Below, in pieces: positions 1,490 through 59,399 of a stretch of 64,000 bases of DNA. Made by a program: the position numbers and the translations under genes. Under the pieces are notes generated by a model, which saw nothing but the letters and a program-made list of their open reading frames with translations, was not told the DNA's origin and made no database searches. Each line of letters opens with the position of its first letter. The first letter of the stretch is position 1. The DNA is from Nitrospirales bacterium. Lineage in GTDB: Bacteria; Nitrospirota; Nitrospiria; Nitrospirales; UBA8639. The stretch spans positions 2,112,001 to 2,176,000 of the forward strand of contig OY820905.2 of assembly GCA_963555755.3 (NCBI GenBank), given 5' to 3'.

Positions 1490-1493
1490 ACTT

Positions 1494-2495: not shown

Positions 2496-2519
2496 TGACA
2501 TGATGCATGTGGAGGGGCA

Positions 2520-6059: not shown

Positions 6060-6527
6060 CTATTCCTTCTCTTTGTTCTGTTTGACGACTGAAGTGAGAT
6101 AGTGATCGAGGTGCTTGGCAAATAATTGCCGATCCCGTTGGGACAGCGCAGACGGACCACCCGTATCGACACCGCTGGCCCGGAGTGTATCCATGAAATC
6201 CCTCATCGTCAGACGGGCTTGAATCGTATCGACTGAATGCATGTCACCCCGTGGATCAAGCGCATGTCCACCCTTTGCAATGACCTCAGCAGCAAGCGGA
6301 ATGTCCGCCGTGATTACCAGGTCGCCAGCTTCCAATCTTCGCACGATTTCGTGATCAGCCACATCGAATCCATTGGCAACTTGGAGGGCGGAAATATAGC
6401 GCGATGATGGGATATGCAGCAATCGATTCGCGACGAGCGTGACGAGCACAGCTGTCCGCTCCGCCGCTCGAAACAAAATTTCTTTAATCACCTTGGGACA
6501 GGCATCGGCATCAACCCAAATTGGCAT
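6060..6527 (-). CDS. yaiI: YaiI/YqxD family protein (DUF188)
   Basis: [24 protein letters not shown] motifs. Confidence 0.92.
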
Positions 6528-7095
6528 GGCCTACCTTCATGGTTCAGGAGTTTAAACAAGAGGTCCTTCCGGGTTTTCCATGGGTAGTCCCCAGTCTGCT
6601 GTTCCTTCCCTGCTTCGGATCCCTCTTCTTTAATAGGAAACCTGCCGGCCCGCAGAAGCGCTTTGGCGAAGGCATGGGCTAGGTAAGGTAGAGTCTTGGT
6701 ACCATCTGCTAGCCATGAGGGGAGCAGCCATCGTGTGCTGTAAAGAGCCTACCTCCCCTCCTTACAAAGGAAGGAAACTCAAGGACGGTCAGCCATACTG
6801 TTTACCCATGCTCATGTCGGAAGAACCAAAAAAGACCAGAGGTCGCCAGTATGCCCTCCCATTGGTACAGCCATGGCAATACCGCAACTTCATGTATTTT
6901 ATCAAAGAGACAGAACTATCCCCTGTGGTGGGAGAAAGCCATAGGCTAGAGGCTGAGTCCAACGCCCCTCAACAATTAACAAAAGATTCTCTTTATTACT
7001 ATATGTGGCATTGCAAGGCCTAATCCCATTTCCCCATTTTTTGACGGGGAAGGGTTAATAGGTATTGAGTCAACAAAAGATTCGACCTCCAATTC

Positions 7096-7250
7096 AAATT
7101 TCTGAAAGGTTATCTGACGCACTCTCCCACGATTCACAACATGATAAAAGGCATGAGTGTATTGAATGCGGGCAAGTCTGGACATAGAAAGAGGATAAAT
7201 TAAATCAATGAATTAAAAAATAGGATTGACCCCTTTTTTGACCACCTTTT
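7096..7250 (-). pseudogene. N-terminal remnant of a Y1/RAYT-like transposase with its left end
   Basis: MSRLARIQYTHAFYHVVNRGRVRQITF resembles the start of the 54750/61414 proteins. A GGGGTCA end sits 48 nt upstream of the ATG, as in the intact copies. Confidence 0.8.
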
Positions 7251-7672
7251 TGTGGCATGACAAGACCGGGGCACTGTCCCATCTAATCTGCCCCATGACC
7301 TGAGGGCAATCGGTGTGTAGAAAAGTTGAGCCAGTCTCTGGAAAGCCAGCCACGTCTTGCTCCGACGAAAGAAAGGGATTAAGTCAAAGCTTAAGCCCCT
7401 ACCCATGCCTAACTCTAATTTTGCCTCCCATTTTTTCAGATGGGCAGTGATTCGAATTTTACCTCTATTTTCCCTTTTTCAAAAAATTTCATGTTATCTT
7501 CTTCTAAAATTTACTCTATAGAGTAAATAATTTCATAAAATTTTATTAAAAATTAAACAATTTCAATAAGTTAAATATAAATACTATATCATAAACAATA
7601 TATCTAAATAGTTTTTTTATACTGTTAACAGTATTATTACTGTTTGATTTAATATTGTTTACAATATATACT

Positions 7673-8146
7673 ATGGACATGAAGAAAAAATCTATCACCA
7701 TAATTGATGACATTGCGCTGTCAAAATTGAGGGTCGATTCATCATCTGAAGATCAAAATCTCAAACCGGGAGATTGGATTCGTCTTGTGCGAACTTATCT
7801 CCGAATGACACAGGCGGAACTAGCCAAACGAGCAAATATTACGCAAGCCAACCTGATAGCGATTGAATCAAGGAAAGCAGACCCACGAGTGAGCACGCTT
7901 CAGCGGATATACAAGGCACTTTCCAGTAACCTGAGCGTCGAACCGCTTCCCCAAAAACCACTTGAGGAAATACTCCGCGGGCGTGCTCGCGCGGTTGCTC
8001 TCAAGAGATTGAAAAAGACGATGGGTACAATGGCACTGGAAGGCCAAGCGCCGGAGAAAGAGATATTCCAGAAGCTTCTAGAAAAAAGAACTGACGAAAT
8101 CCTCCGTGATCCCCGCGAACGATTATGGCGCAAAGACGATGACTGA
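7673..8146 (+). CDS. Mobile mystery protein A (XRE-type HTH)
   Basis: GDWIRLVRTYLRMTQAELAKRA HTH and TMALEGQ motif; overlaps the downstream Fic gene. Confidence 0.85.
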   Translation: MDMKKKSITIIDDIALSKLRVDSSSEDQNLKPGDWIRLVRTYLRMTQAELAKRANITQANLIAIESRKADPRVSTLQRIYKALSSNLSVEPLPQKPLEEILRGRARAVALKRLKKTMGTMALEGQAPEKEIFQKLLEKRTDEILRDPRERLWRKDDD

Positions 8147-8756
8147 TGCCACGCAACCCGTCGGAGCCACACCGGGAGGGGACACCTCGGGTCTTCTCCT
8201 CGTCCATTTAGCAACACCTGCTGCTCGCAACGCCGCGGAAGCAGAAGCCATCAGTCACGCCTATGATAAACATGTGTTTCGCGCGCGCAGAAAAAAGCAG
8301 GAAATCGAATGGCTCACCGACGATTTTATCCGTCGAGTACATAGAGATATGTTCGGGCCAATCTGGGAGTGGGCAGGCAAGTACCGACAGACACAACAGA
8401 ATATTGGCGTCGAACCTCATCTGATCCGTGAACAGATCAAACTACTCACCGAGGACTTTCTCTATTGGAATGACACCAAGTCCACAATGTCAGTAATTGA
8501 AGTCGCGGCACGCCTCCAGCACCGCCTCACCAACATCCACCCATTCACCAATGGGAACGGACGACATGCAAGACTCATCACTGATATTGTCTTCCACTCG
8601 CGTCAACTCCCTATTCCCCAATGGCCGCAAATTCAACTCATGGCTAAAGGGAACGAGATTCGTGAACAATACATCACGGCGATAAAAAAAGCTGATGACG
8701 GCGACATCAAGGATTTGATTCAGTTCATTGAAGAATGCCTTAGGCCAAGCAGATAA
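8139..8756 (+). CDS. Mobile mystery protein B (Fic domain)
   Basis: PVGATP start, WAGKYR, Fic motif HPFTNGNGRHAR. Confidence 0.88.
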   Translation: MTDATQPVGATPGGDTSGLLLVHLATPAARNAAEAEAISHAYDKHVFRARRKKQEIEWLTDDFIRRVHRDMFGPIWEWAGKYRQTQQNIGVEPHLIREQIKLLTEDFLYWNDTKSTMSVIEVAARLQHRLTNIHPFTNGNGRHARLITDIVFHSRQLPIPQWPQIQLMAKGNEIREQYITAIKKADDGDIKDLIQFIEECLRPSR

Positions 8757-8888
8757 ACCCTAACTTTTCGAAGTATATATGGCACGGAAAGACCTGCCCT
8801 CCTGGCCTTTCCGCTCCCCTTTTTACCTCATCATTGGAAATTCCCATGTTGGACCGCTACGGAATATGTGACATTGCAAGACCTGGCC

Positions 8889-10357
8889 CAATACTGTTCA
8901 CTTAGATATCTTCGGTGGTTTGATGGATGGTGTCCAGTCAATTTGCGCAACGGGCGGTCTCGGACGTTTGTACGGTGCGTATGGAGAGTTTCGGCGTTTC
9001 ACCATCCTCGGCTTGATTTTTCCACGACTGGATTCACACAACAGTTTCGCCGTCGCCTCAAACAGCAGCCGATACCATGTTTTTTGGCGCTCAGGGGGGA
9101 AGGGCCCCAGATTGGGGCAGGGTTCGACGCACTAACTGCACCGTGGCCGTAAAAGATACCGTGCGGTCAGGGATGTCTGCCTGGGTGGCCCCTTGATACA
9201 TCAACCAGCGCACGGCGTAGTGGGCCATCACCCATCCGTAGAACTCTTGACGCACCAACTCTGGCGTTTTACTGCGCAGGACGCGACGACGTTGCCTCAG
9301 GTGCGTCTTCAGCTCATCAAACACCAATTCCACCTCCCAGCGCTCGTGATACAGTTGAGCCAGGTCCTGGGCGGGTGCGCCTTGGTCATCCAGCAGCGTG
9401 GTGACGAGACGGTACAGCGGTTCGCTATTGGGCCCCTGCGGTAAGACATACTCAATCACCCTGATGGCGATCCCATCAATTCGCTTTCTTCTGGCGCGTT
9501 CACTGGGATACAGATGGCTCAGGTACGAGCCATCGTCCAACAGCTTGTCAACTGGAAGGATCAAGCTCTTCGGCATGCGCCAGAGTAGTTGCGCTCCGGT
9601 CTGAAGGCCGGCCTGCCAATGGGCGTACCCGACAAAGCCGCGATCGGCCATGCAGAGCATGTCGGGCGTGAGGCGACGCACCAAGGGCGCGGCCACCTCC
9701 CATTCGGCCTGCTTATAGGCCCCTAGTTCGGCATCCAAAATGGCGTGACTGGCACATTCCGTCAAAATGGCGCACTGGGCTTGGGGGTAGCCGGCCTGCC
9801 CGGTTCGGCTCCCTGGGTACCCAAAGACTTGCACATTGGCTTCCTCATCCGGGACCTCAAAGTTGGAGCCATCTATCGCGACGAGTCGGTAGCCTGCAAA
9901 AAAGGCGTGGGCATGCTCTGGACGAGCCAACGGGCGCAAGCAGCGCTGTCCAATGGCTTTCAGCGCCTTCCACGTCAGCCGTGAGCGGGCTTTGCTGATG
10001 GCGGATTTGACAACGGTCACGGGAGCAACGGGTTTGTGGTCTTTCCATGCCAGCCCTTGGGCCACAGCGGCAAACACCGCTTCGTACGCGGCCTCGCTGT
10101 ATAAGCTCAACGCCATGGTGTAGTACACCACGGCAGAAGCGGGAAAGGTGCGGACACGTTCACTGTTACAATGATGTGCGTCAAGTTCTTCGTTGATGAT
10201 GGCCACCGGAAAGGCACGAGCCAGTAATCCCGTGCTCAAATAATCCGCCAATCGAGCCCCCGCCCCCAAGCCGACTTTCTTTCTTGCCATGTTGCCTCCT
10301 CCCAGATTACGTGTGGAGGCGAAGTATAACAGATTTTCATCTAAGTGAACAGTATTG
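8889..10357 (-). mobile_element. IS4-family element, copy 1
   Basis: TIRs CAATACTGTTCACTTAGAT; 10-bp TSD AGACCTGGCC at 8879-8888 and 10358-10367. Confidence 0.95.
9091..10290 (-). CDS. IS4-family transposase
   Basis: LVAIDGS, ADRGF, LYHERWEVELVFDELKT (YREK-like) motifs. Confidence 0.93.
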   Translation of the reverse strand: MARKKVGLGAGARLADYLSTGLLARAFPVAIINEELDAHHCNSERVRTFPASAVVYYTMALSLYSEAAYEAVFAAVAQGLAWKDHKPVAPVTVVKSAISKARSRLTWKALKAIGQRCLRPLARPEHAHAFFAGYRLVAIDGSNFEVPDEEANVQVFGYPGSRTGQAGYPQAQCAILTECASHAILDAELGAYKQAEWEVAAPLVRRLTPDMLCMADRGFVGYAHWQAGLQTGAQLLWRMPKSLILPVDKLLDDGSYLSHLYPSERARRKRIDGIAIRVIEYVLPQGPNSEPLYRLVTTLLDDQGAPAQDLAQLYHERWEVELVFDELKTHLRQRRRVLRSKTPELVRQEFYGWVMAHYAVRWLMYQGATQADIPDRTVSFTATVQLVRRTLPQSGALPP

Positions 10358-10388
10358 AGACCTGGCCCCATCTCGGCCTTAATTAATA

Positions 10389-10429
10389 AGTCAATACTCA
10401 TGCCTGACCCCATATCCTGACCCCATATC
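10389..10429 (+). repeat. Solo GACCCC-type end (AGTCAATACTCATGCCTGACCCC) with tandem end duplication
   Basis: The same 23-mer recurs at 5379 (degenerate), 11525, 31731, 45325 and inverted at 11234; here CTGACCCCATATC occurs twice. Confidence 0.85.
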
Positions 10430-10614
10430 TAATAATAGAATGAATACTCCTGATAATTTCCCGACCGGATCCCAACCGGAAAGGCCCCTCAGGATTGAAA
10501 TGTCCCAAAGGGCCTTTCATCTACCGATCCAGGTGGGAGGCTTCCGGCACGGCCTGTTTCCTTTTGCGTCAACCTGGTTTTTCAGTGATCACTTGATTCA
10601 AGAGCAGTCCCTCT

Positions 10615-10908
10615 TTATTTTATCTTGTCTAACACTCCCTGAATCTCATCCTCAGTAAAGGCTCGTAGAGTTTCTGTACGAACATTCCCCTTCGCACATC
10701 CTCCCATCATCACGGCAGCGGCCGTTTCATCATCGGGGGCCTCGAATATAATGACCCCGTCATACCGGCCCATCGTCCAGTAAATATTTTTGACTGACCC
10801 TCCACCTGCTTTGATCGAACTTCTAAAGTCCCCGGCCCGTTTGGCCGTGTTTTTCACATCATGAACACCTGGCTCCGTCCACCCAAACAGTGAAATAAAG
10901 GTTGGCAT
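10615..10908 (-). CDS. GYD-domain protein
   Basis: YWTMGRYDGVIIFEAPDDETAAA, GNVRTETLRAF. Confidence 0.9.
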   Translation of the reverse strand: MPTFISLFGWTEPGVHDVKNTAKRAGDFRSSIKAGGGSVKNIYWTMGRYDGVIIFEAPDDETAAAVMMGGCAKGNVRTETLRAFTEDEIQGVLDKIK

Positions 10909-11233
10909 GATCTCCTCCTTCTTGTTTGAAAAATAAGGATCGAAAGACAATGGGTCCCAGTCATTGTCTTCCCAGGCACTATAGTAGGCTCATGCATTCC
11001 AAGGGGCAACGGGGGAAGGTACCTGATAGAAAGTGAGGCAAGGGATACATATTTCCTCAACCAAAGATTTCAACCATTTTTCTTTTCTTTGATATTTTCA
11101 GTCACCTTGCCTCGGGTCTTATGAAGCTGATCGTTTTCTTGCACAATGCGCCGCCACTTTGGCGCGATTGCCGCACAAGGCCATGGTACACCAGCGGCGA
11201 GTGTGGTTTTTACTAATATCGGATATACGGTTA

Positions 11234-11563
11234 GGGGTCTGCATGAGTATTGACTAATGGGCACCTCTAAAAACCGTCCTTTTCCGTGATGGCGGCGTCA
11301 GCCGCGTGCTCACATCCTCATCTATTCGCCCATACATTCCGGTTTTCCGCGCGCGGTTTCCTTGCCCTCACAAAAAATGCCTGGTTTGTAGAGGTGCCCT
11401 TATATGGCATCAATGGGGCCAAGCCCCAGTTTGTCGAGATTAATTCAGAGGACTTGCAACAATGAACAAAATCATCAATCCGAAAATGACCCACAAAAAT
11501 CTCAACCTCTACACTGAATACATAAGTCAATACTCATGCCTGACCCTAATTCTGACCCTAATT
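11234..11563. mobile_element. Non-autonomous mini-element bounded by inverted GGGGTC(T/A)...TGACCC ends
   Basis: GGGGTCTGCATGAGTATTGACT (11234) is inverted relative to AGTCAATACTCATGCCTGACCC (11525); CTGACCCTAATT occurs twice at the right end. Confidence 0.7.
11259..11399. mobile_element. MITE (141 bp) nested in the mini-element
   Basis: TIRs GGGCACCTCTAAAAACC / GGTTTGTAGAGGTGCCC; no ORF. Confidence 0.7.
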
Positions 11564-39811: not shown

Positions 39812-39887
39812 GCGCCTGTAGCTCAGTGGATAGAGCACTGGCCTCCGGAGCCAGGTGCCGCAGGTTCAAATCCTGCCAGGCGCGCCA
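39812..39887 (+). tRNA. tRNA-Arg(CCG)
   Basis: GCGCCTG/CAGGCGC acceptor stem, anticodon loop CTCCGGA, GGTTCAAATCC, encoded CCA. Confidence 0.97.
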
Positions 39888-40051: not shown

Positions 40052-40127
40052 GGGTCGTTAGCTCAGCTGGTAGAGCAGCTGACTCTTAATCAGCGGGCCC
40101 GGGGTTCGATCCCCCGACGACCCACCA
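40052..40127 (+). tRNA. tRNA-Lys(CTT)
   Basis: GGGTCGT/ACGACCC acceptor stem, anticodon loop CTCTTAA, GGTTCGATCC, encoded CCA. Confidence 0.97.
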
Positions 40128-43840: not shown

Positions 43841-45058
<1,218 letters not shown>

Positions 45059-45945: not shown

Positions 45946-47032
45946 CTTGCTTATCCTGTTTGCCCACCAACGTACGACCTATAGTAGGGTGGCCGTAGAT
46001 ACATGAGCGCAATGATCCCAATCCCCGTTGTAAAGGCCTCGATACGTGGGGCCGGGCACCTTCATGCCGATACCCAATAGGGAAGCGAAAGCCGTCATCG
46101 GGTAAAAGGGACGGTTGAACCGGAATACGAATTCATTCAGATAGGCCGACAGGTGTTGCGTGCTGACGCTATGGTGAGTTCCCATCAGCCAAGTCTTCAG
46201 ATTCGAGAAGGCGATGTGGATCATAGGGAGGTGGATATCGGTTTTCTCGCGATCGCCATTGCGCACCATGGGCTCGTGCGCGTACCCCAATTGTGTCAGA
46301 TTGTCGTAGCCGCCCCATTCGTCGGTGCGCACCATGGCGCCCGTGACTACGCTCTCCTGCACGAACCCCGTGAGCGTTTTGGCCCCGCGGTTTGGCACGA
46401 GACACAAGCGCAACCTTCCTGCGTAAACGGCTCGGTGGGGCTTTTTGCCATCAACGCCGAGCGGCCGAGGGCGAACTTCGATGGCACCAGCAACCATCGA
46501 TTGATGGTGGACGCCACGTCCTTTGCTCTTGGTGCGCCCCCCCACCAGCGTTTCATCCACCTCGACTGGCCAATCTGCGCCAATCCGGTCGGGGTTGGGG
46601 CGAACCATGCCAGCGCGGAGCTTGTGGAGCATCTGGAATGCGGTCTCGTAGCGAGTCAGCCCAAGCTGGCGCTGAAGCTGCACCGCAGACACGCCGGGCG
46701 TTTGCGTCGTCACCAGATACGCGCCCAAAAACCACGCCTGCAAGGGCGTCCTTGTCGCATGCATGACGGTGCCAGCGGTCAGCGCCACATCACTGTGGCA
46801 ATGTCGGCATCGAATCATCCGTGGTCTCGTGACGATGCGCTGCGCCTTGCTGCTCACGCCGCACGTTGGGCACGCAAATCCGTCCGGCCACCGGATGGCC
46901 TCAAGATAGGCCGCACACGCCATTTCGCTGGGAAACATCTGTTGAAACTCAAGCAACGACTGGGGGTGGCGAATTTCCATGACGATCATACCCTACCTAT
47001 TAGCGTGAGGGTGTGTCAACCGGATAAGCAAG
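45946..47032 (-). mobile_element. IS1595-family element, second type (transposase 45979-46989)
   Basis: TIR CTTGCTTATCC; near-TSD GATTGCCC/GTTTGCCC; Zn ribbon, VEVDET, YLNEFVFRFNR. Confidence 0.9.
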
Positions 47033-47870: not shown

Positions 47871-47912
47871 GGTTAGGGGTCAGGTTAGGGTCAGGTTAGG
47901 GGTCAGGTTAGG
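47871..47912 (+). repeat. GGTTAGGG(G)TCA tandem array, outer part of a Y1-element left end
   Basis: 3.5 units; rejoins to GGTCAAGTCACTTGCTTCA at 54641 when the intron is removed. Confidence 0.85.
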
Positions 47913-48016
47913 GTAGAGTAGAGCACTGGTGCATACATGGAGCTGCTCTCGAACGCTTCGACGCACGCGTCTACCACGGACCATAGCAGTCAGCACTTCC
48001 CAGCGCCCCCTCATCA

Positions 48017-50010
48017 GTAGGGTCGAGGACTGGCGCGCCAACGGTAGGGTTCGGTGGCTCCTCCACCCCTTTCGGAATGGGCCTCAGTCCGACTCCCCTG
48101 GTCACGGTTCCAGTCCCCGCCACCTCAAACCCGGCGTGCTGATTTCCAGCACCGGGCTTTCCTGGATGCTTCACCTCAAGGGTTATGTGACCTATCAGCC
48201 TGGAAGGACTTTCATGCCGACCCGTTGTACCGCACTCGGTAATCTCCATATAAGCCAAGTACCGTGTAGAGCCAAACCTTACTCCACCTCTTCCAGCCAA
48301 AACCTCGACGGTGGCGCACTCGCATCATGTGCCGCCGGACCTTCCGCTCCACCCAATCCTTCACGTAGGATAAACACCGACTCGCATGCCCAATCCGGAA
48401 GTCGTTCACCCAGCCCCGTACGATCGGATTGATCATGGCGATCATCCGTCCCACCGGCTGGGATTGCCCGCGTCGGAACACTTCCTTGAGCTTCCGCAGC
48501 AACGCGGTGCGCCGCTTCACCTTCGGTATGTACTGCGGGCGCCACACTCCACGCCGCGACCGCACACGCCGAAAGTCAAAGCCCAGAAAGCCGAAGCTGC
48601 CTCCCTGACTCAGGTCCACGATTCGGCTCTTCTCCTCATTCACCTGAAGGTCTAATTGGGCCAACGCCTCTCGCAGCTTCCGCTCCGCAACCTGCGCCAG
48701 TTGTGCGTGGCGGCGATAGCCATCCACTAACACGACGAGGTCATCCGCAAACCGGACATACTCGAGATACGTATACTGGCCCTGCCGGGTTGTCTCCTTC
48801 AGCTGCTCCAGCCTCTCATCCACTTCCGTGAGATAGAGGTTGGCCAGCAGCGGGGAAATCACACCCCCTTGAGGCACCCCACGCGGGCCGGACGCCTTGA
48901 CGATGAGTTTCACCAGCCGCAGGATCGCGGGATCCTGGATGCGTCGGGCCACCTTCGCCAGCAGCCGGTCATGCCGCACCGTGTCGAAGAAGGCCGCCAG
49001 ATCCACATCAATCACTCGCGTCTTGTTCTGCACCATCGCCTGAGCCACCCGGCCAATCGCCTGATGGGCTGTCCGTTTCGGTCGATACCCATACGACCCG
49101 TCCCGAAAATCCGCCTCAAAGATCGGTTCCAGCAGGAGCTTGAGCGCTCCCTGTACCACGCGGTCCCGAATCGCGGGTATCCCTAAGACGCGGACTCGTC
49201 CACCGCCTTTCGAAATCTCCACGTGCCGGTTCCGCATCGGTCGGTAGGTCTGCGTGACCAGTTCGTCCCGTAGTCGTGCAAGAAAGGGCTCCACCCCCGT
49301 GGCCTCGATGCCAGCAAACGTCACCCCATCAATGCCGGGGGCTCCGTTGTTTTTCTTGGCCATCGAATAGGCCGCGCGTAGCGTCGCCTCTTTGCACACG
49401 TGGACGTACAAGCCCCACACCCGCCATCGCTTCTCAGCCTTCGCCTTGACGTAGAGCCGCTGTCGCAGGTCTTGCAGTGTAATGGACGCCGTTGTCATCT
49501 CGTCCCTGCCTCCCATGTTGATCACAGCCTACAGCCAGTAGGGCTCCTTTGCTCCACAGGCATGACCCTGCTTCCTCGCTCCTACGAGCCCCTCCGCCAC
49601 CCTCTCGTCTTCGGCTCACTTCCCAGAGAGCTGGTTATAGAGCCGATCTTCCTCCAGGGATTTCTCCCTGGGACGAGGAGGGCTTCTCCAGTTGCGTCGT
49701 CTGTCCTTGCTCCCGTGCTGTCGCTCTCACCCCGCCGGAGTGGCCAGGCGTCTCAGCCTTGGTTCGCCTGTCCATGCCGTCTTCGTCCTACGGACAGGGA
49801 CTCGACCTCCGAGGTTTCATACTTTCGAGGCTACCTCTGCGTTCACTTGCGTTACGGCCCGGGAACTCGCTCACCATCCTCTACGATGGCTTTGTCGATG
49901 GGCTTCAGCGTCTCGGTTTCTCTCCACGCTGCCATCCAAGCTACAGGGCTCAGGCTCTTACCCTGGTGGGCTTGCTTCCCACTGAACAGTCTCGCCTTAC
50001 CTGGACACAC
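48017..50010 (-). mobile_element. Group II intron, tandem copy A (1994 bp)
   Basis: 5' GTGTG, DV AAGCCCGGTGCTGGAAATCAGCACGCCGGGTTT, 3' CGACCCTAC. Confidence 0.93.
48212..49525 (-). CDS. ltrA: Group II intron reverse transcriptase/maturase, no endonuclease domain
   Basis: GAPGIDG, LGIPAIRDRVVQ, SYGYRP, GVPQGGVISPLLANLYL, RFADD, FLGF, domain X. Confidence 0.95.
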   Translation of the reverse strand: MINMGGRDEMTTASITLQDLRQRLYVKAKAEKRWRVWGLYVHVCKEATLRAAYSMAKKNNGAPGIDGVTFAGIEATGVEPFLARLRDELVTQTYRPMRNRHVEISKGGGRVRVLGIPAIRDRVVQGALKLLLEPIFEADFRDGSYGYRPKRTAHQAIGRVAQAMVQNKTRVIDVDLAAFFDTVRHDRLLAKVARRIQDPAILRLVKLIVKASGPRGVPQGGVISPLLANLYLTEVDERLEQLKETTRQGQYTYLEYVRFADDLVVLVDGYRRHAQLAQVAERKLREALAQLDLQVNEEKSRIVDLSQGGSFGFLGFDFRRVRSRRGVWRPQYIPKVKRRTALLRKLKEVFRRGQSQPVGRMIAMINPIVRGWVNDFRIGHASRCLSYVKDWVERKVRRHMMRVRHRRGFGWKRWSKVWLYTVLGLYGDYRVRYNGSA

Positions 50011-52004
50011 GTAGGGTCGAGGACTGGCGCGCCAACGGTAGGGTTCGGTGGCTCCTCCACCCCTTTCGGAATGGGCCTCAGTCCGACTCCCCTGGTCACG
50101 GTTCCAGTCCCCGCCACCTCAAACCCGGCGTGCTGATTTCCAGCACCGGGCTTTCCTGGATGCTTCACCTCAAGGGTTATGTGACCTATCAGCCTGGAAG
50201 GACTTTCATGCCGACCCGTTGTACCGCACTCGGTAATCTCCATATAAGCCAAGTACCGTGTAGAGCCAAACCTTACTCCACCTCTTCCAGCCAAAACCTC
50301 GACGGTGGCGCACTCGCATCATGTGCCGCCGGACCTTCCGCTCCACCCAATCCTTCACGTAGGATAAACACCGACTCGCATGCCCAATCCGGAAGTAGTT
50401 CACCCAGCCCCGTACGATCGGATTGATCATGGCGATCATCCGTCCCACCGGCTGGGATTGCCCGCGTCGGAACACTTCCTTGAGCTTCCGCAGCAACGCG
50501 GTGCGCCGCTTCACCTTCGGTATGTACTGCGGGCGCCACACTCCACGCCGCGACCGCACACGCCGAAAGTCAAAGCCCAGAAAGCCGAAGCTGCCTCCCT
50601 GACTCAGGTCCACGATTCGGCTCTTCTCCTCATTCACCTGAAGGTCTAATTGGGCCAACGCCTCTCGCAGCTTCCGCTCCGCGACCTGCGCCAGTTGTGC
50701 GTGGCGGCGATAGCCATCCACTAACACGACGAGGTCATCCGCAAACCGGACATACTCGAGATACGTATACTGGCCCTGCCGGGTTGTCTCCTTCAGCTGC
50801 TCCAGCCTCTCATCCACTTCCGTGAGATAGAGGTTGGCCAGCAGCGGGGAAATCACACCCCCTTGAGGCACCCCACGCGGGCCGGACGCCTTGACGATGA
50901 GTTTCACCAGCCGCAGGATCGCGGGATCCTGGATGCGTCGGGCCACCTTCGCCAGCAGCCGGTCATGCCGCACCGTGTCGAAGAAGGCCGCCAGATCCAC
51001 ATCAATCACTCGCGTCTTGTTCTGCACCATCGCCTGAGCCACCCGGCCAATCGCCTGGTGGGCTGTCCGTTTCGGTCGATACCCATACGACCCATCACGA
51101 AAATCCGCCTCAAAGATCGGTTCCAGCAGGAGCTTGAGCGCTCCCTGTACCACGCGGTCCCGAATCGCGGGTATCCCTAAGACGCGGACTCGTCCACCGC
51201 CTTTCGAAATCTCCACGTGCCGGTTCCGCATCGGTCGGTAGGTCTGCGTGACCAGTTCGTCCCGTAGTCGTGCAAGAAAGGGCTCCACCCCCGTGGCCTC
51301 GATGCCAGCAAACGTCACCCCATCAATGCCGGGGGCTCCGTTGTTTTTCTTGGCCATCGAATAGGCCGCGCGTAGCGTCGCCTCTTTGCACACGTGGACG
51401 TACAGGCCCCACACCCGCCATCGCTTCTCAGCCTTCGCCTTGACGTAGAGCCGCTGTCGCAGGTCTTGCAGTGTAATGGACGCCGTTGTCATCTCGTCCC
51501 TGCCTCCCATGTTGATCACAGCCTACAGCCAGTAGGGCTCCTTTGCTCCACAGGCATGACCCTGCTTCCTCGCTCCTACGAGCCCCTCCGCCACCCTCTC
51601 GTCTTCGGCTCACTTCCCAGAGAGCTGGTTATAGAGCCGATCTTCCTCCAGGGATTTCTCCCTGGGACGAGGAGGGCTTCTCCAGTTGCGTCGTCTGTCC
51701 TTGCTCCCGTGCTGTCGCTCTCACCCCGCCGGAGTGGCCAGGCGTCTCAGCCTTGGTTCGCCTGTCCATGCCGTCTTCGTCCTACGGACAGGGACTCGAC
51801 CTCCGAGGTTTCATACTTTCGAGGCTACCTCTGCGTTCACTTGCGTTACGGCCCGGGAACTCGCTCACCATCCTCTACGATGGCTTTGTCGATGGGCTTC
51901 AGCGTCTCGGTTTCTCTCCACGCTGCCATCCAAGCTACAGGGCTCAGGCTCTTACCCTGGTGGGCTTGCTTCCCACTGAACAGTCTCGCCTTACCTGGAC
52001 ACAC
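50011..52004 (-). mobile_element. Group II intron, tandem copy B
   Basis: Directly abuts copies A and C (..CCCTAC|GTGTG..). Confidence 0.93.
50206..51519 (-). CDS. ltrA: Group II intron reverse transcriptase/maturase
   Basis: As copy A, but WVNYF instead of WVNDF. Confidence 0.95.
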   Translation of the reverse strand: MINMGGRDEMTTASITLQDLRQRLYVKAKAEKRWRVWGLYVHVCKEATLRAAYSMAKKNNGAPGIDGVTFAGIEATGVEPFLARLRDELVTQTYRPMRNRHVEISKGGGRVRVLGIPAIRDRVVQGALKLLLEPIFEADFRDGSYGYRPKRTAHQAIGRVAQAMVQNKTRVIDVDLAAFFDTVRHDRLLAKVARRIQDPAILRLVKLIVKASGPRGVPQGGVISPLLANLYLTEVDERLEQLKETTRQGQYTYLEYVRFADDLVVLVDGYRRHAQLAQVAERKLREALAQLDLQVNEEKSRIVDLSQGGSFGFLGFDFRRVRSRRGVWRPQYIPKVKRRTALLRKLKEVFRRGQSQPVGRMIAMINPIVRGWVNYFRIGHASRCLSYVKDWVERKVRRHMMRVRHRRGFGWKRWSKVWLYTVLGLYGDYRVRYNGSA

Positions 52005-53998
52005 GTAGGGTCGAGGACTGGCGCGCCAACGGTAGGGGTCGGTGGCTCCTCCACCCCTTTCAGAGTGGGCCTCAATCCGACTCCCCTGGTCACGGTTCCA
52101 GTCCCCGCCACCTCAAACCCGGCGTGCTGATTTCCAGCACCGGGCTTTCCTGGATGCTTCACCTCAAGGGTTATGTGACCTATCAGCCTGGAAGGACTTT
52201 CATGCCGACCCGTTGTACCGCACTCGGTAATCTCCATATAAGCCAAGTACCGTGTAGAGCCAAACCTTACTCCACCTCTTCCAGCCAAAACCTCGACGGT
52301 GGCGCACTCGCATCATGTGCCGCCGGACCTTCCGCTCCACCCAATCCTTCACGTAGGATAAACACCGACTCGCATGCCCAATCCGGAAGTAGTTCACCCA
52401 GCCCCGTACGATCGGATTGATCATGGCGATCATCCGTCCCACCGGCTGGGATTGCCCGCGTCGGAACACTTCCTTGAGCTTCCGCAGCAACGCGGTGCGC
52501 CGCTTCACCTTCGGTATGTACTGCGGGCGCCACACTCCACGCCGCGACCGCACACGCCGAAAGTCAAAGCCCAGAAAGCCGAAGCTGCCTCCCTGACTCA
52601 GGTCCACGATCCGGCTCTTCTCCTCATTCACCTGAAGGTCTAATTGGGCCAACGCCTCTCGCAGCTTCCGCTCCGCAACCTGCGCCAGTCGTGCGTGGCG
52701 GCGATAGCCATCCACTAACACGACGAGGTCATCCGCAAACCGGACATACTCGAGATACGTATACTGGCCCTGCCGGGTTGTCTCCTTCAGCTGCTCCAGC
52801 CTCTCATCCACTTCCGTGAGATAGAGGTTGGCCAGCAGCGGGGAAATCACACCCCCTTGAGGCACCCCACGCGGGCCGGACGCCTTGACGATGAGTTTCA
52901 CCAGCCGCAGGATCGCGGGATCCTGGATGCGTCGGGCCACCTTCGCCAGCAGCCGGTCATGCCGCACCGTGTCGAAGAAGGCCGCCAGATCCACATCAAT
53001 CACTCGCGTCTTGTTCTGCACCATCGCCTGAGCCACCCGGCCAATCGCCTGATGGGCTGTCCGTTTCGGTCGATACCCATACGACCCGTCCCGAAAATCC
53101 GCCTCAAAGATCGGTTCCAGCAGGAGCTTGAGCGCTCCCTGTACCACGCGGTCCCGAATCGCGGGTATCCCTAAGACGCGGACTCGTCCACCGCCTTTCG
53201 AAATCTCCACGTGCCGGTTCCGCATCGGTCGGTAGGTCTGCGTGACCAGTTCGTCCCGTAGTCGTGCAAGAAAGGGCTCCACCCCCGTGGCCTCGATGCC
53301 AGCAAACGTCACCCCATCAATGCCGGGGGCTCCGTTGTTCTTCTTCGCCATCGCATAGGCCGCGCGTAGCGTCGCCTCTTTGCACACGTGGACGTACAGG
53401 CCCCACACCCGCCATCGCTTCTCAGCCTTCGCCTTGACGTAGAGCCGCTGTCGCAGGTCTTGCAGTGTAATGGACGCCGTTGTCATCTCGTCCCTGCCTC
53501 CCATGTTGATCACAGCCTACAGCCAGTAGGGCTCCTTTGCTCCACAGGCATTACCCTGCTTCCTCGCTCCTACGAGCCCCTCCGCCACCCTCTCGTCTTC
53601 GACTCACTTCCCAGAGAGCTGGTTATAGAGCCGATCTTCCTCCAGGGATTTCTCCCTGGGACGAGGAGGGCTTCTCCAGTTGCGTCGTCTGTCCTTGCTC
53701 CCGTGCTGTCGCTCTCACCCCGCCGGAGTGGCCAGGCGTCTCAGCCTTGGTTCGCCTGTCCATGCCGTCTTCGTCCTACGGACAGGGACTCGACCTCCGA
53801 GGTTTCATACTTTCGAGGCTACCTCTGCGTTCACTTGCGTTACGGCCCGGGAACTCGCTCACCATCCTCTACGATGGCTTTGTCGATGGGCTTCAGCGTC
53901 TCGGTTTCTCTCCACGCTGCCATCCAAGCTACAGGGCTCCGGCTCTTACCCTGGTGGGCTTGCTTCCCACTGAACAGTCTCGCCTTACCTGGACACAC
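52005..53998 (-). mobile_element. Group II intron, tandem copy C
   Basis: Its 5' end abuts the host intron DV hairpin. Confidence 0.93.
52200..53513 (-). CDS. ltrA: Group II intron reverse transcriptase/maturase
   Basis: As copy B, with AAYAM and HARLA variants. Confidence 0.95.
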   Translation of the reverse strand: MINMGGRDEMTTASITLQDLRQRLYVKAKAEKRWRVWGLYVHVCKEATLRAAYAMAKKNNGAPGIDGVTFAGIEATGVEPFLARLRDELVTQTYRPMRNRHVEISKGGGRVRVLGIPAIRDRVVQGALKLLLEPIFEADFRDGSYGYRPKRTAHQAIGRVAQAMVQNKTRVIDVDLAAFFDTVRHDRLLAKVARRIQDPAILRLVKLIVKASGPRGVPQGGVISPLLANLYLTEVDERLEQLKETTRQGQYTYLEYVRFADDLVVLVDGYRRHARLAQVAERKLREALAQLDLQVNEEKSRIVDLSQGGSFGFLGFDFRRVRSRRGVWRPQYIPKVKRRTALLRKLKEVFRRGQSQPVGRMIAMINPIVRGWVNYFRIGHASRCLSYVKDWVERKVRRHMMRVRHRRGFGWKRWSKVWLYTVLGLYGDYRVRYNGSA

Positions 53999-54701
53999 AT
54001 CCGTGCGTATGGTTTTCCCATACACGGCTTTCCGATGTTCTTCTTCCAGCGGCATGCGTCTGTCATCAGGCAATAGCCACATTCAGACTTGGCCTTCTGA
54101 GATAGTTTCCTCTGTAGTGTCCTGATCGTGCTCGGGGTGGTTAGCGCAATGGCAATCCCCTGATCCTCCACTCGTCGGAAACGTGAACAAAGTAGGGTCC
54201 CTTCCCTCGGGCCGGGTTGTGTTGTCCCAGGCTCTCCAACGGTACTATGAACCCCTCCGACTCCCACGACGGCCCGCAGCGATTTCGGTATCCCTTATAC
54301 GCCTCAGTTGCTGGTTCTGCGCCAGCACCGTCGCGGGTCTCCCGTCCTGCACGGTGTCTCTTCCGCCACATGCCATCCCTGCTACCCCGGAAGATCCTGA
54401 GGGTGGGTGTTCGTTCTACTCCCTCAAACGGCGGCCTTCCCCTTCTGACCACAGGGTCGGCATCTCCAATTCGTTTACGAGGCTACATCTAGGTTCGCTT
54501 GCGCTACGGCCTGCGGCTTTGCCCATGGGAAACTTCAACCCCTGATTACTCAGACGCTGCTTCCTGGTGCTAGAAAGGTGTACGAACAACTCCTTTCGCG
54601 GGACTTCAACCCGCTAGACACACCGCCGATGACGGCATGCGGTCAAGTCACTTGCTTCATGATAAAGAAAAGGAAAAGGGGTCAGAAAAGGGGTCAGAAA
54701 A

Positions 54702-55734
54702 GGGGTCAAGTCACTTGCTTCATGATAAAAAAGTAGTTAGACTCTGGTCATGCCTCGACCTCCTCGGATGGAATACGAGCATGCGGTGTATCATGTCATG
54801 AATCGTGGCCGGGCTCGGCACCCGGTGTTTCATGATGCCCGGTACTATCGAGCCTTTCTCGACACGTTGGCCGAGCTGCATACCCGCTTCCAGGGTGTGA
54901 TTCATGCCTATTGCTTGATGGGCAATCACTATCATGTCTTGCTGGAAACTCCCAGGGCCAATCTCAGTCGCATGATGCGCCATCTTAACGGGGTGTATAC
55001 GCAACGGCATAATCGTCTCAAACGTACTGATGGCTCTTTGTTTCGAGGCCGCTATAAAGCCATTTTGGTGGAGCACGATGCCTATTTGCTCCACGTGTCC
55101 CGGTATATCCATCGAAACCCTCTTGACGGCATACGGCCGCTGGTCACGAATTTGTCTGATTATCCCTGGTCGAGCTATCCGACATATATCGGTCAAGCGA
55201 AGCCGGCACCGTGGTTGTGCCGGGAACCGACGTATCGCCTGCTTGGGCATGTGCACCGGTATCGCGGGTATGCTCGCTACGTGCTAGAGGGCAACGATAA
55301 AGAAATCGAGTATTTTTCCCAACGGGGTAATAGGGCGGCCATTATGGGAGGGCAGGAGTTCAAATCTTGGGTCTATGACGAATTACTGCCGGATCTTGAA
55401 GCGGAGGAGAAAGGGCAGGTGATCCAGCCGAGTCTTGCAATCGACACTATGATCACTGGGGTGGCCAAGGCCTATCGCACGACACCAGACCGGCTGACCA
55501 TGGTAGTGAAAGGGCCGCAAAAAGGGAATGAGGCTCGGAAACTGGCGATGTATCTGTGTCAGGAATTAGCGGATGTGAAACTTCAGGACATTGCGCCCTG
55601 CTTCCATCTGCGTCATAGCGGTTCGGTGAGTTTTATCACCCACCAGGTCAGAAAGAAGAAACGAGACGAGAAGGGATTTGCCGCTAGAATGAACGAGGTG
55701 ATTGAAAGTATTCTGAAGCAATCGACTTGACCCC
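54702..55734 (+). mobile_element. TIR-bounded HUH/Y1 (RAYT-like) element, copy 1
   Basis: Left GGGGTCAAGTCACTTGCTTCA and right TGAAGCAATCGACTTGACCCC are inverted at 19/21 positions; GAAAAGGGGTCA x3 on the left. Confidence 0.88.
54750..55730 (+). CDS. Y1/HUH (RAYT-like) transposase with C-terminal DnaA-like HTH
   Basis: YHVMNRG, YCLMGNHYH (HUH), LFRGRYKA, YIHRNP, YPWSSY; C-terminal ARKLAMYLCQE..LQDIAPCF..SVS. Confidence 0.92.
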   Translation: MPRPPRMEYEHAVYHVMNRGRARHPVFHDARYYRAFLDTLAELHTRFQGVIHAYCLMGNHYHVLLETPRANLSRMMRHLNGVYTQRHNRLKRTDGSLFRGRYKAILVEHDAYLLHVSRYIHRNPLDGIRPLVTNLSDYPWSSYPTYIGQAKPAPWLCREPTYRLLGHVHRYRGYARYVLEGNDKEIEYFSQRGNRAAIMGGQEFKSWVYDELLPDLEAEEKGQVIQPSLAIDTMITGVAKAYRTTPDRLTMVVKGPQKGNEARKLAMYLCQELADVKLQDIAPCFHLRHSGSVSFITHQVRKKKRDEKGFAARMNEVIESILKQST

Positions 55735-56190
55735 TATTCGACCCCTATTCTTGACCCCTATTCATAGGGCGGCCATTATGGGAGGGCAGGAGTTCAAATC
55801 TTGGGTCTATGACGAATTACTGCCGGATCTTGAAGCGGAGGAGAAAGGGCAGGTGATCCAGCCGAGTCTTGCAATCGACACTATGATCACTGGGGTGGCC
55901 AAGGCCTATCGCACGACACCAGACCGGCTGACCATGGTAGTGAAAGGGCCGCAAAAAGGGAATGGGGCTCGGAAACTGGCGATGTATCTGTGTCAGGAAT
56001 TAGCGGATGTGAAACTTCAGGACATTGCGCCCTGCTTCCATCTGCGTCATAGCGGTTCGGTGAGTTTTATCACCCACCAGGTCAGAAAGAAGAAACGAGA
56101 CGAGAAGGGATTTGCCGCTAGAATGAACGAGGTGATTGAAAGTATTCTGAAGCAATCGACTTGACCCCTATTTGACTTGACCCCTATTTT
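55735..56190 (+). repeat. 3'-coterminal duplications of the Y1 element end (including a ~400-bp copy of the gene 3' part)
   Basis: GACCCCTATTC units, then 55765-56168 repeats 55330-55734, then GACTTGACCCCTATT. Confidence 0.9.
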
Positions 56191-57812
56191 ATTATGTCAT
56201 AAACAATTTGTAACGTTAATTATAGTACAAAACCTATATTGAGAAATCATTTAGCGATCAAAAAATTGATCAAAATTAATTAAAATTAGCCCTAACAAAG
56301 TGAATTTTCTTATTTTTCCGATCTCCACATTTTGTTCGATTCTTAAATAGTTTATAGTTATACCAGTTTTGTTGAGTGGTCATAGTAGAAGTCAGCTAAT
56401 GTTATTTTTATTAACTTTGACATCTTTAGGATTTCTTGGATTTTTGTCTTATGATGTTTTTGCTGAACCTACATTCACACTTGAGTGGGATGGAACTTCA
56501 CAACATGATAATACCGTAAATGTTGGTGACACTATTGCTTGGGAATGGATTGGTCTTCAACATAATTTAGTATGGGATGACGAAACAGGAGTTCCTCTAC
56601 CTGATCCATCGTTTGGATTTCCAGATATCGTTGATGAACCAAATACCTACGCATTTACATTTACTGAACCTGGAGAATACTATTATCACTGTACAATTCA
56701 TTCAGAGCAATCTGGTGTTGTAACTGTTCTACCGTCGCCTATCACACTTGAGTGGGATGGAACTTCACAACATGATAATACCGTAAATGTTGGTGACACT
56801 ATTGCTTGGGAATGGATTGGTCTTCAACATAATTTAGTATGGGATGACGAAACAGGAGTTCCTCTACCTGATCCATCGTTTGGATTTCCAGATATCGTTG
56901 ATGAACCAAATACCTACGCATTTACATTTACTGAACCTGGAGAATACAACTATCACTGTACAGTCCATGAAGAACAATTTGGAGTTGTAATTGTTGAATC
57001 ATCTGAAGAACCTGTACTTGCTTGGGCTGGATCTTCACAACATGATAATACCGTAAATGTTGGTGATACACTTACTTGGGAATGGGGTGGAAATAGTCAT
57101 AATTTAGTATGGGATCCAGAATCAGGAGTTCCTCTACCTGATCCATCATTTGGATTTCCAGATATTGTTAATGCTCCAAATACATACGCATTTACATTTA
57201 CTGAACCTGGACAATACTTCTATCACTGTGAAGTTCACTCACAACAATTTGGAGTTGTAACTGTTCTACCGCCAGCAAGTTGGCCAAACTGGGGAGGGGA
57301 CTTGTCTAACACAAAGAATGCCTCAACCGAATCTCAACTGTCTCCTGATAATATTGACGCTCTCATAGAAGATTGGATATACACCACTGATGGCTCTGTA
57401 GTTTCATTTGTTACTGTTCAAGGAAATGATGCATACTTTGTTAGTAGAGTAACTCCTGATGGTCAATCTTTTCCTGCAGCAGATGCAATGCTTAATTCTA
57501 TTAATCGTATAACTGGAGAACTCAATTGGGCATTCCCAATTTCAAGTTATGTTGAATCCTCATCTAATCCATCTCTTGTAAATGATGATGCTAGAGTCTC
57601 ACCTGCAATACAAGATGATATTTTAGTTGTGGGTACACAATATGCAGCAAATGGTGCAACTGTCTTTGCAGTTGACAGAAACACTGGCGATGAACTTTGG
57701 GAAACTGCAGTAGATGATCACATATATTCTATAATCACAAGCTCTCCTACAATTTATCAGGATAGAGTCTATGTTGGTGTTTCTTCTCTTGAAGAATTAT
57801 GGGCAGGAATTA

Positions 57813-59399
57813 CCCAAGATCCGCGATGGGTTTGGTCAACAGAGGTCCTTTGGCAAAACCCACGTGTTCGCGCCATTGCTTAGTCAATGGTCTGGCTGGA
57901 TTTGAGCCACCTCCCAGAGTTGCCTGTCCTGACATGGGATCGACCAGCCTTTTGGGCAGACCACTCCCTTCCTGCTTCCTTCTTCTCTTGTGCTGTCCCC
58001 TGCCCCGGCTTAATAAGGCTGGGCAGCTTCTGCACAGCGCGTCCGAATCTCCTCACACAAGCCCCACAGCTGTTGTTGCACTTTGAGGATCACGGCACCA
58101 GCATGCCGGACCACTTTGCCCGCCACCTGATACAGCCGCCAACGCACCGTGCGCACTTGGCACTGGCTCCAGGCATAGGGCAACGCCAACAACTTGAACA
58201 ACACAAACAGGTTGTAGGCTAACACGCCAATGCGAAAGAAGACGGCATTGGCCGCGAAGGTCCCACACGGAAGCCGTTCCATGCCAAAGCCACTCTTCAG
58301 TTCTTTGATGCGATTCTCGCTGGTCTCGCCCCGCTGGTTGTACCATCGTACAATCTCCTCAGGGGTTCCATCTCGGTTCGTCGCAATCAGCGTGTAGCGC
58401 AGGCTGGGGGCCTCGGGGGCAAACAGATCCTGTTGCACGGGCCGTCGCAATACGATGAGGCGAAAGGCTTGCTTGGTCTTCGCCATACAATGTACCGTTT
58501 CAGCGAGATGGCCATCTCGGTAGGGTTGCCACTGGCTCTCAGGGATGGCGGCAATGACGGCCTGCACGGCCGTATCCTGCACGCCCCCAATCGCAAACGT
58601 CACGTTGTGCTCCTCGCACCAATTGAACAACTCCGCTTGGTACGCCGCACTATCCGCCCGCACATGAGCAATCCGTTTGCCTTTGGGCATCTGCGCCGCA
58701 CACGCCTGGGTGAATTCAAGATTGCGGGACGCCGGAGCCTCATTCCCTTCACGAAACTCCTCCCCAAGCACCAGCCCATTTTCCGCCAGGTGCCCCAGCA
58801 TCGGCAGATAGCCTCGCTCCCCCTTGTACGTCCATTTGGCTGCCTGCTTCTCCGCGACAATCTGCGTGGCATCAAGATCGAGGGTATAGTCCGTGCGCGG
58901 TTCCCGCTTCAACGCCCGCCGGATCTGCTGCTGATTGACGACGGCTAAACTTGCTAAACCATCCTTCTCCCCCATGCGTCGCAGCCAATCGCCCGTGGCA
59001 TCGGCACTGGGAACCACGGGGAGTCGCAGCACGGCCCGCAAGCCCGCATCCTCGCGAATCTGGCGCAGATCCTCCAGCGTCCGGCCCCCGCCATGCAACA
59101 TCAGCAGCAGGGGCTCGACAAATTGGGCGGGGTGATAGCCGATGCGGCTCCCGGGCGCGGGCAAGGCCGCATTGAGTTGCCGGGGCACATTCATGGCTTG
59201 GAGAAACTCCCCGAACAGCGCCAGCCCGCCATGAGCGGTGAGCTGTTCGTCGGTGGGCTCAAGCTTGAACGGAAGAACGGTTTGTGGCATCATTCGTTTC
59301 ACCTCGTTGGTGAGGAGTGGCTAAGGGGGTAGGCACCCGTATCTTAGCAAATCAACGAGGTTTTTTTATGCCCAAAATAAATCCATCGCGGATCTTGGG
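57813..59399 (-). mobile_element. IS1380-family element, complete
   Basis: TIRs CCCAAGATCCGCGATGG; 5-bp TSD AATTA at 57808-57812 and 59400-59404. Confidence 0.95.
58010..59302 (-). CDS. IS1380-family transposase
   Basis: LTAHGGL, LDLDAT, VRADSA, YNQRGETSENRIKELK, LAYNL. Confidence 0.93.
   Translation of the reverse strand: MKRMMPQTVLPFKLEPTDEQLTAHGGLALFGEFLQAMNVPRQLNAALPAPGSRIGYHPAQFVEPLLLMLHGGGRTLEDLRQIREDAGLRAVLRLPVVPSADATGDWLRRMGEKDGLASLAVVNQQQIRRALKREPRTDYTLDLDATQIVAEKQAAKWTYKGERGYLPMLGHLAENGLVLGEEFREGNEAPASRNLEFTQACAAQMPKGKRIAHVRADSAAYQAELFNWCEEHNVTFAIGGVQDTAVQAVIAAIPESQWQPYRDGHLAETVHCMAKTKQAFRLIVLRRPVQQDLFAPEAPSLRYTLIATNRDGTPEEIVRWYNQRGETSENRIKELKSGFGMERLPCGTFAANAVFFRIGVLAYNLFVLFKLLALPYAWSQCQVRTVRWRLYQVAGKVVRHAGAVILKVQQQLWGLCEEIRTRCAEAAQPY

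Follow-up and report, generated by a model that had tools for sequence, protein, structure and literature searches.

We analysed a window of 64,000 nucleotides (nt) from the genome of a Nitrospirales bacterium (GenBank assembly GCA_963555755.3, contig OY820905.2, positions 2,112,001 to 2,176,000) and found three complete copies of a group II intron, joined head to tail, within domain V (DV) of a different group II intron. The inner intron is named P and its copies in the array A, B and C; the host intron is named H. Coordinates on the genome contig carry the prefix C1, and positions without it, unless given as intron positions, are those of the window. We propose that the array was built by repeated retrohoming of an active, endonuclease-minus (En-minus), IIB-like P into the 5′ exon retained at the host DV, by way of pairing with two exon-binding sites (EBS1 and EBS2). 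We assign this reading a probability of roughly 0.7.

Architecture of the array and its host intron

The array and the elements of the host intron comprise the following features (IEP, intron-encoded protein; RT, reverse transcriptase; ORF, open reading frame; IBS, intron-binding site; DVI, domain VI):

52005–53998, minus strand: inner intron copy C, first in the transcript, next to the host DV 5′ exon; differs from the family consensus at 15 sites
52200–53513, minus strand: IEP of copy C, 437 amino acids, RT and maturase, without endonuclease domain
50011–52004, minus strand: inner intron copy B, consensus type, 1 difference
50206–51519, minus strand: IEP of copy B (P0001)
50121–50153, minus strand: P's own DV in copy B, followed by a long structured DVI of ~105 nt that ends with the 3′ splice site at 50011
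48017–50010, minus strand: inner intron copy A, last in the transcript, adjoining the host 3′ part; 5 differences
48212–49525, minus strand: IEP of copy A, ORF intact
53999–54640, minus strand: 5′ part of the ORF-less host intron, domains I–IV and DV to its last-but-one nt; RF02005, 63.4 bits; GCAUG 5′ end
53999–54030, minus strand: host DV hairpin, 32 nt, with the last DV nt at 48016
53999–54004, minus strand: IBS1 for P in the host DV, ACGGAU
54007–54011, minus strand: IBS2 for P in the host DV, CAUAC
47913–48016, minus strand: 3′ part of the host intron with the last DV nt, a long DVI and the 3′ splice site CUAC
54445–54450, minus strand: host EBS1 GGUCAG, whose IBS1 UUGACC is the 5′ exon at 54641–54646

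The three direct copies of P occupy positions 48017–53998 on the minus strand and start at 48017, 50011 and 52005, a spacing of exactly 1994 nt. Each has the 5′ end GTGTGTCCAG and the 3′ end CGACCCTAC (minus strand), and the next copy abuts with 0 bases in between. A preliminary description of this DNA, made from the sequence alone, had reported three 1994-bp introns joined 3′ end to 5′ end without exon bases, which the spacing and the abutting ends confirm. In the 4.62-Mb genome the 19-nt string across the P–P junction has just two occurrences, and both belong to the array.

All three copies match the Rfam model group-II-D1D4-4 (RF02003; 111.6–112.1 bits) and contain an intact ORF of 437 amino acids with the Pfam domains RVT_1 and GIIM. 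The IEP scored 356.8 bits against NCBIfam TIGR04416 (group II RT/maturase, cut-off 300), so that the RT/maturase typical of a mobile group II intron is present in each array copy. A Pfam search of the IEP gave RVT_1 and GIIM only and no endonuclease (D/En) domain; together with the Rfam ribozyme matches this upholds the description of the inner elements as En-minus group II introns. The ribozyme part of P comprises ~680 nt with a long DVI, and its DV hairpin folds. Ribozyme domains are accompanied by exact boundaries, which were fixed by an empty paralogous site (see below). The gathering score of the Rfam model Intron_gpII (RF00029) was reached by copy C alone (43.4 bits, window positions 52032–52149). 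Copies A and B stay below it because of four single-nucleotide polymorphisms (SNPs) in the DVI region.

The host intron H runs on the minus strand from 54640 to 47913, lacks an ORF and measures 746 nt without P. A comparison of 17 H copies and fragments placed its start 20 nt or so 5′ of an internal GTGTG start. Its 5′ end is non-canonical: it reads GCAUG, which is replaced by GUUCG in a subfamily of 75% identity, with an internal GUGUG or GUAUG ~20 nt downstream. The EBS1 of H (GGUCAG) complements the conserved 5′ exon YUGACC, and the H target reads YTGACC/CC. Other H copies encode an RT/maturase of 450 amino acids that is 40% identical to the P IEP.

In an unoccupied paralogue of H (C1:228423/228422) both flanks of the array are contiguous, and the DV–DVI region of this paralogue scored 42.8 bits against Intron_gpII (gathering score 40). 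Relative to the empty paralogue, what is added at occupied sites is exactly the 1994-nt unit. Precise removal of the inner introns would therefore restore the outer intron, as is characteristic of a twintron. The earlier claim that the array lies in DV of a different intron, with flanks that rejoin to an intact DV–DVI, is substantiated by the empty paralogue, which passes Intron_gpII. In the Intron_gpII alignment P is inserted before the last DV nt. The host DV hairpin loses its closing base pair only, and DVI and the 3′ splice site are displaced by 6 kb. The insert may disable the host ribozyme.

Occupied DV sites carry ACGGAU at six loci and ACGGUU at four. The ACGGAU variant pairs better with P EBS1 and has a G–A mismatch opposite the G of the host AGC triad, where the Rfam consensus has U. 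In several H copies another element with a fixed end is inserted in the apical part of DV (C1:1250583–1254814, 5145–11272 and 775404–775600). An insertion splits P at position 512/513, and the halves lie at C1:1250583–1251094 and 9684–11163, ~1.2 Mb apart. These insertions and the split P are further layers of nesting or rearrangement.

Target recognition, distribution and orientation of P

For the analysis of target recognition 80 loci encoding relatives of the IEP were fetched from genome records. Most of them are 59–71% identical to this IEP, one is 93% and twelve are 37–54% identical. After 25 loci had been dropped, whose 5′ end did not align from position 1–2, 55 were analysed, and 49 were scorable for EBS pairing. 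The resulting recognition elements of copy B are located as follows:

51783–51789, minus strand: EBS1 loop, GUCCGUA, with counterparts at 53777–53783 (copy C) and 49789–49795 (copy A)
51812–51816, minus strand: EBS2 candidate, GUAUG, with a fully paired 5-mer in 23/49 relatives

EBS1 is a loop at intron positions 216–222 with the sequence GUCCGU(A), 6–7 nt in length, of which GUCCGU complements ACGGAU of the host DV. An EBS1 complementary to the CGGAT end of the 5′ exon, which the preliminary description had proposed to look for, is thus present. Between the EBS1 7-mer and the seven terminal bases of its own 5′ exon, a mean of 6.57 of 7 positions are paired (n = 49; six or more in 44 of 49), compared with a mean of 3.61 of 7 for the flanks of other loci as a control. 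The EBS2 candidate at intron positions 189–193 (GUAUG) complements CAUAC of the host DV and pairs with exon positions −13 to −9. Its best 5-mer is fully paired in 23 of the 49 relatives vs. 16% in mismatched controls. In the relatives EBS1 tracks variants of the host DV (ACGGUU, CCGGUU, CCGGGU, ACGGAA and CCAGUU). The 3′ strand of P's own DV does not match P EBS1, so that P does not target itself.

The genome contains 13 full-length P copies (98–100% identity) and three large fragments. The other genomic copies had been named as a test of the preference for DV hairpins. Eleven of the 13, three of which form the array, share one DV position in H-family introns. One copy adjoins the 3′ half of a DV in which another element has taken the place of the 5′ half, and one lies in the sense strand of a formate–tetrahydrofolate ligase (FTHFS) gene (L163, C1:1558900–1563700; intron at 1369–3362). 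The 5′ exon of the latter matches Pfam FTHFS with 733.7 bits and the reading frame is continuous across the exon junction. An in-frame stop follows 33 codons downstream of P, and homologous sequence resumes after it; the gene may be a pseudogene or the stop a sequencing error. The FTHFS site offers a perfect 7-nt IBS1 (GUACGGAC) and no IBS2 match, and there is no upstream hairpin (DNA fold −2.0 kcal/mol).

These data bear on the intron class. The preliminary description took P for a class IIC intron that reads the DV hairpin, i.e. recognises it as a terminator-like stem-loop together with an IBS1 of 3–4 nt. The IEP without endonuclease domain and the fact that the commonest target, the host DV, is a stable hairpin speak for this view. 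We nevertheless consider it very improbable, because P lacks the traits of class IIC: instead of a short IBS1 without EBS2, it has an EBS1 of 6–7 nt and an EBS2 that covary with their 5′ exons, and its target is set by sequence rather than by an upstream stem-loop. Moreover, 29 of the 55 relatives have non-DV flanks, and the ribozyme part has ~680 nt with a long DVI. Copies in unrelated contexts with no upstream hairpin had themselves been named as evidence against hairpin reading, and the FTHFS copy is one of these. On account of the EBS1 and EBS2 pairing, recognition by P is of the IIB type and not in the IIC mode. P appears to be IIB-like, and its long structured DVI and EBS loops, which resemble descriptions of class F, may point towards class F or E. 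Neither a tblastn search of plasmids, in which all Sinorhizobium matches were below 60% identity, nor published accounts of classes D, E and F settled the class.

Homing to DV recurs in the relatives. Curated by eye, 26 of the 55 are at the same DV position (24 of 51 with flanks of at least 40 nt and two of four with shorter flanks). Automatic detection by regular expression and fold found 20 of 51, with one false call (L035) and five missed loci (L006, L007, L008, L010 and L049). The 26 DV-site loci come from 20 assemblies with about nine phylum-level labels, including Nitrospirota, Pseudomonadota, Acidobacteriota, Spirochaetota, Rhodothermota, Chlorobiota, Lentisphaerota and Thermodesulfobacteriota. 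On a quick midpoint-rooted tree of the IEPs 25 of the 49 rows carry the DV label; they are found on either side of the root, and the label requires at least eight changes. Other sub-clades home elsewhere, in some cases apparently to transposase genes as judged by eye. In 30 related genomes the only close relatives of P were fragments at contig ends. In some relatives (L010, L059, L060 and L033) the host itself is P-like, an ORF-less sibling with the insertion at DV; in L033 a P-like intron is inserted in another one at about position 475.

No group II intron can do without its DV, and the sequence multiplies together with the host intron. As a homing target it is for this reason hard to mutate away. 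With DV sites in nearly half of the relatives and under so many phylum labels, the association seems to be an ecological relationship among mobile elements that has come up repeatedly, rather than a peculiarity of a single genome. At slightly less than even odds, we picture the P lineage as a deep, multi-phylum group of En-minus, IIB-like introns whose usual, perhaps ancestral, habit is to parasitise other group II introns. Its EBS1 and EBS2 would imitate the DV 5′ strand and home to the most conserved ribozyme element, tracking DV variants by compensatory change. Piled up head to tail, its members would separate the catalytic hairpin of the host from the branch-point domain and could throttle host splicing and spread.

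Cumulative GC skew locates the replication origin at around 2.70 Mb and the terminus at around 0.55 Mb. Relative to these replichores, every one of the 16 P copies and fragments points in the direction in which the fork travels, an orientation that is largely inherited from H, as 14 of 17 host introns are co-directional as well. P thus combines the lack of a D/En domain with the fork-directed orientation of fork-primed En-minus introns. Four H copies with an intact DV are empty, two of them on the opposite strand. The only empty copy with the preferred ACGGAU, at C1:228423 (L162, C1:228317–230275), is oriented against replication, unlike every occupied copy, and encodes a host IEP of 450 amino acids. 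The strand bias of P fits the lagging-strand-template preference of the En-minus intron RmInt1.

Origin of the array

The three array copies differ from each other at 6 (A–B), 16 (B–C) and 14 (A–C) sites. As the preliminary description had noted, the SNPs include the amino-acid changes S/A (54), Q/R (275) and D/Y (375) in the IEPs and changes in DVI, where copy C has four variants. Copy B equals the family consensus bar one site. Copy C has 15 variant sites, 14 of which are shared with a distant copy at C1:2223405. Copy A contains one site common to two divergent copies, a patch of three SNPs of the copy-C type (alignment columns 910, 913 and 949) and a single private SNP; B and C have no private SNPs. 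This heterogeneity points to at least two donor lineages, or to conversion from distant copies.

A comparison of host and P divergence over nine loci, with copy C as the only representative of the array, gave a Mantel r of −0.07 (p = 0.52). Hosts that differ at 37–50 of 656 positions (6–8%) carry P copies that mostly differ at 1–5 of 1994 positions (the c2540 and c2223-type copies at more), and identical hosts carry P copies that are 15–16 sites apart. Movement of host and inner intron as a composite unit was rejected on these grounds. The uncorrelated divergence argues that P invaded already dispersed hosts one by one.

From the structure of the locus and the EBS pairing we propose the following course of events. 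Pairing of P EBS1 and EBS2 with the DV 3′ strand of H would direct retrohoming to one point, before the last DV nt. Insertion keeps the IBS2–IBS1 segment whole; the sole alteration is at +1, where the T of the target gives way to the first G of the intron. The 5′ exon portion thus survives and is reusable, as had been suggested earlier. Since the recognised 5′ exon is left intact, a second ribonucleoprotein (RNP) of P can reverse-splice at the same phosphodiester. Any further P RNP would act upstream of the resident copy, and three such insertions, from at least two donor sub-lineages, would yield the head-to-tail array. Two features of tandem retrohoming, an exact 3′-end to 5′-end junction and a 5′ exon kept upstream, are found here. 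Copy C, next to DV, would then be the youngest, which we regard as plausible by analogy with the tandem integration reported in E. coli in 2025. Priming of the cDNA might take place on the lagging-strand template at the replication fork, as in other En-minus introns. In the RNA the P copies would leave first, after which the host DV–DVI would be restored. A matching 5′ exon is available to the first copy alone, so that removal would proceed either copy by copy, beginning at the 5′ end, or as a single excision between the first 5′ and the last 3′ splice site.

The P–P junction is not confined to this genome. The string CGACCCTAC followed directly by GTGYGTCCAG was found in 81 metagenome stretches. 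Among 80 junction loci that were fetched, 13 are contigs of about unit length with identical ends. One locus (L083) shows three junctions at a spacing of 2150 nt, and two others (L104 and L110) contain two full copies each with unique flanks. The first 5′ flank is visible in 18 arrays, of which seven are at DV and 11 at other targets. As arrays form at DV and non-DV targets alike, the capacity to build arrays belongs to the clade rather than to the DV hairpin.

The A/B junction was also searched for in raw data. Assembly unitigs of 60 nt spanning it, with 30 nt on each side and thus one letter short of the 31-nt bridging rule, are present in two of the four runs covered (X18, depth 455; X21, depth 155), and these two come from two studies. 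Runs X17 and X19 had no A/B junction piece among the pieces listed. Among the runs found to contain the stretch, none was recorded as RNA. The depth of the junction k-mers is about one quarter of the intron depth. An over-expanded or mis-joined repeat in the assembly could be suspected, as P is a 13-copy repeat of 98–100% identity and the copy number of the array comes from the assembly. Such an artefact is hard to reconcile with the raw-data unitigs, with a genome assembled in two contigs at 99.4% completeness and with the presence of the same junction in 81 unrelated metagenome stretches. In addition, the three units have distinct SNP haplotypes, so that the earlier argument from SNPs against a collapsed repeat holds. 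We consider an assembly artefact very improbable.

The array could also have arisen in a single event, if the RT switched from the 5′ end of one intron RNA to the 3′ end of the next or copied an RNA circle repeatedly and the multimeric cDNA was fixed at the site or recombined with a resident copy. A class IIF intron is reported to yield true circles in which its first and last nucleotides are linked (PMC3753933), and the 13 unit-length metagenome contigs with identical ends would fit circles as well as collapsed arrays. Rolling-circle copying, however, predicts identical units, whereas the array copies differ at 6–16 sites and share variants with dispersed copies. They are not clones, which makes rolling-circle copying of one RNA unlikely; the SNPs weigh against the rolling-circle alternative that had been considered at the outset. 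All four junctions are exact, including the one with the 5′ exon, which needs complete reverse splicing, and L104 and L110 are arrays with unique flanks on both sides. Overall we regard formation in one event as unlikely. Recombinational expansion, in which one re-insertion gave a dimer and the third copy came from unequal sister-chromatid exchange or from replication slippage between the 2-kb repeats, is in our view quite unlikely. The copy-C patch of copy A in a consensus background does show that recombination or conversion took place. A single unequal crossover, however, leaves one switch point where copy A needs two, and copy B is free of any copy C variant. The first duplication is also beyond this route, as no direct repeat flanks a single copy.

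Several observations weigh against repeated retrohoming. The private SNPs are too few to give an insertion order. The mosaic structure of copy A implies that gene conversion acts on the copies, which blurs the argument for several donors. Group II RTs switch templates end to end, and template switching between RNAs of different genomic copies in one event could give unlike units. The raw data back the junction only; the number of three copies is that of the assembly. The FTHFS insertion had been considered as proof of P splicing and was dropped, because the in-frame stop downstream deprives it of any proof of splicing in vivo. The best EBS3 candidate, tentatively assigned to A at intron position 284, forms a Watson–Crick pair with the +1 base in 31 of 37 relatives and cannot pair with the G at +1 of an occupied site. 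Re-insertion would have to tolerate this mismatch, or the EBS3 assignment is wrong. The two off-site P copies have A and C at +1, which are EBS3 mismatches as well.

Related systems and the neighbourhood of the array

Homing of introns into introns, tandem retrohoming (PMC12584367) and strand-biased mobility of En-minus introns are already known. In E. coli, 4.2% and 22.4% of integrants of the IIB1 intron EcKTE56.groEL were reported in 2025 to hold a further copy upstream of the resident one, a tandem insertion attributed to an EBS3(U)–G wobble (PMC12584367). As proposed for P, reverse splicing occurs at the kept 5′ exon upstream of the first copy and gives an exact junction of 3′ and 5′ ends. 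The EcKTE56.groEL tandem is experimental, has two copies and lies at the groEL stop codon, whereas the P array is natural, has three copies and lies in DV of another intron. In this respect it is the natural counterpart of the tandem integration that laboratory work first demonstrated in 2025. The EBS3 of EcKTE56.groEL is a U that wobbles with G, whereas the EBS3 candidate of P is an A without G pairing; this suggests that tandem integration does not need the EBS3–G wobble.

The twintrons of Thermosynechococcus elongatus (F3 in F1) likewise involve a mobile intron that homes to a conserved site of a dispersed intron family, and as in P/H the inner copies are near identical and the outer ones diverged, which led to the same argument for invasion (PMC2882425). 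Their inner introns are ORF-less, single and located in domain IV, whereas P encodes its own RT, forms an array and targets the catalytic DV. In Methanosarcina acetivorans nested introns arise from introns homing into intron sequences (PMC4424553), and the lineage of B.th.I3, M.a.I5, UA.I3 and P.l.I2 targets the RT active-site motif YADD (PMC2504315). Like P, the YADD-targeting introns are En-minus, occur in distant hosts and have IBS1 and IBS2 in a conserved group II motif, a perpetual homing site (PMC2504315). Both of these systems target RT coding sequence and give nested arrays, whereas P targets the DV 3′ strand of the ribozyme and accumulates head to tail (PMC4424553, PMC2504315).

Class IIC introns, including IIC-attC, are En-minus like P and are often inserted directly after a stem-loop (PMC4424553, PMC3753933). 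They have no EBS2, lack part of EBS1 and read the stem-loop (PMC3753933, PMC4424553), whereas P reads sequence by an EBS1 of 6–7 bp and EBS2. RmInt1 of Sinorhizobium meliloti (class D/IIB3) shares with P an En-minus IEP, homing into a mobile element and the lagging-strand-template preference; its target is an insertion sequence and that of P an intron DV (PMC5894124). Class F (IIF) introns have IIB-like EBS1 and EBS2, a small ribozyme, an En-minus IEP and a long structured domain VI, a likeness to P that is drawn from descriptions (PMC3753933, PMC3552965). Our literature search returned no account of DV homing or of natural head-to-tail arrays; several older key papers (Simon et al. 2008, Dai & Zimmerly 2002, Toro et al. 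2002) were outside this search and may bear on it.

The P/H locus offers a testable system for the splicing order of nested and tandem ribozymes and for the regulation of one intron by another. It is also a testable system for strand-specific, replication-linked retrohoming, as the sole perfect empty target is on the opposite strand.

The surroundings of the array are rich in repeats and mobile elements. Directly 3′ of H lies the following repeat:

47871–47914, no strand assigned: 12-nt tandem repeat with the host target motif TGACC/CC; a second array at 54673–54708

Tandem repeats of 11–16 nt with TGACCCC (47871–47914, 54673–54708, 55726–55763 and 56158–56189) flank H and recur nearby, like arrays of landing sites. 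The adjacent DNA encodes an IS110-family transposase (44069–45058), an IS1595-family transposase (45979–46989) and an IS200-like Y1 transposase fused to a DnaA-C-type helix-turn-helix (54750–55730). The 3′ end of this Y1_Tnp/DnaA_C ORF and the DNA just downstream are spanned by a 434-nt unit repeated 2.0 times with 99% identity (55330–56176). An ORF of 504 amino acids (56369–57883) with copper-binding domains of the plastocyanin/azurin type contains a 267-nt unit in three copies (87%; 56471–57271), which indicates a protein with repeated cupredoxin modules. Two tRNA genes are located on the plus strand at 39812–39884 and 40052–40124.

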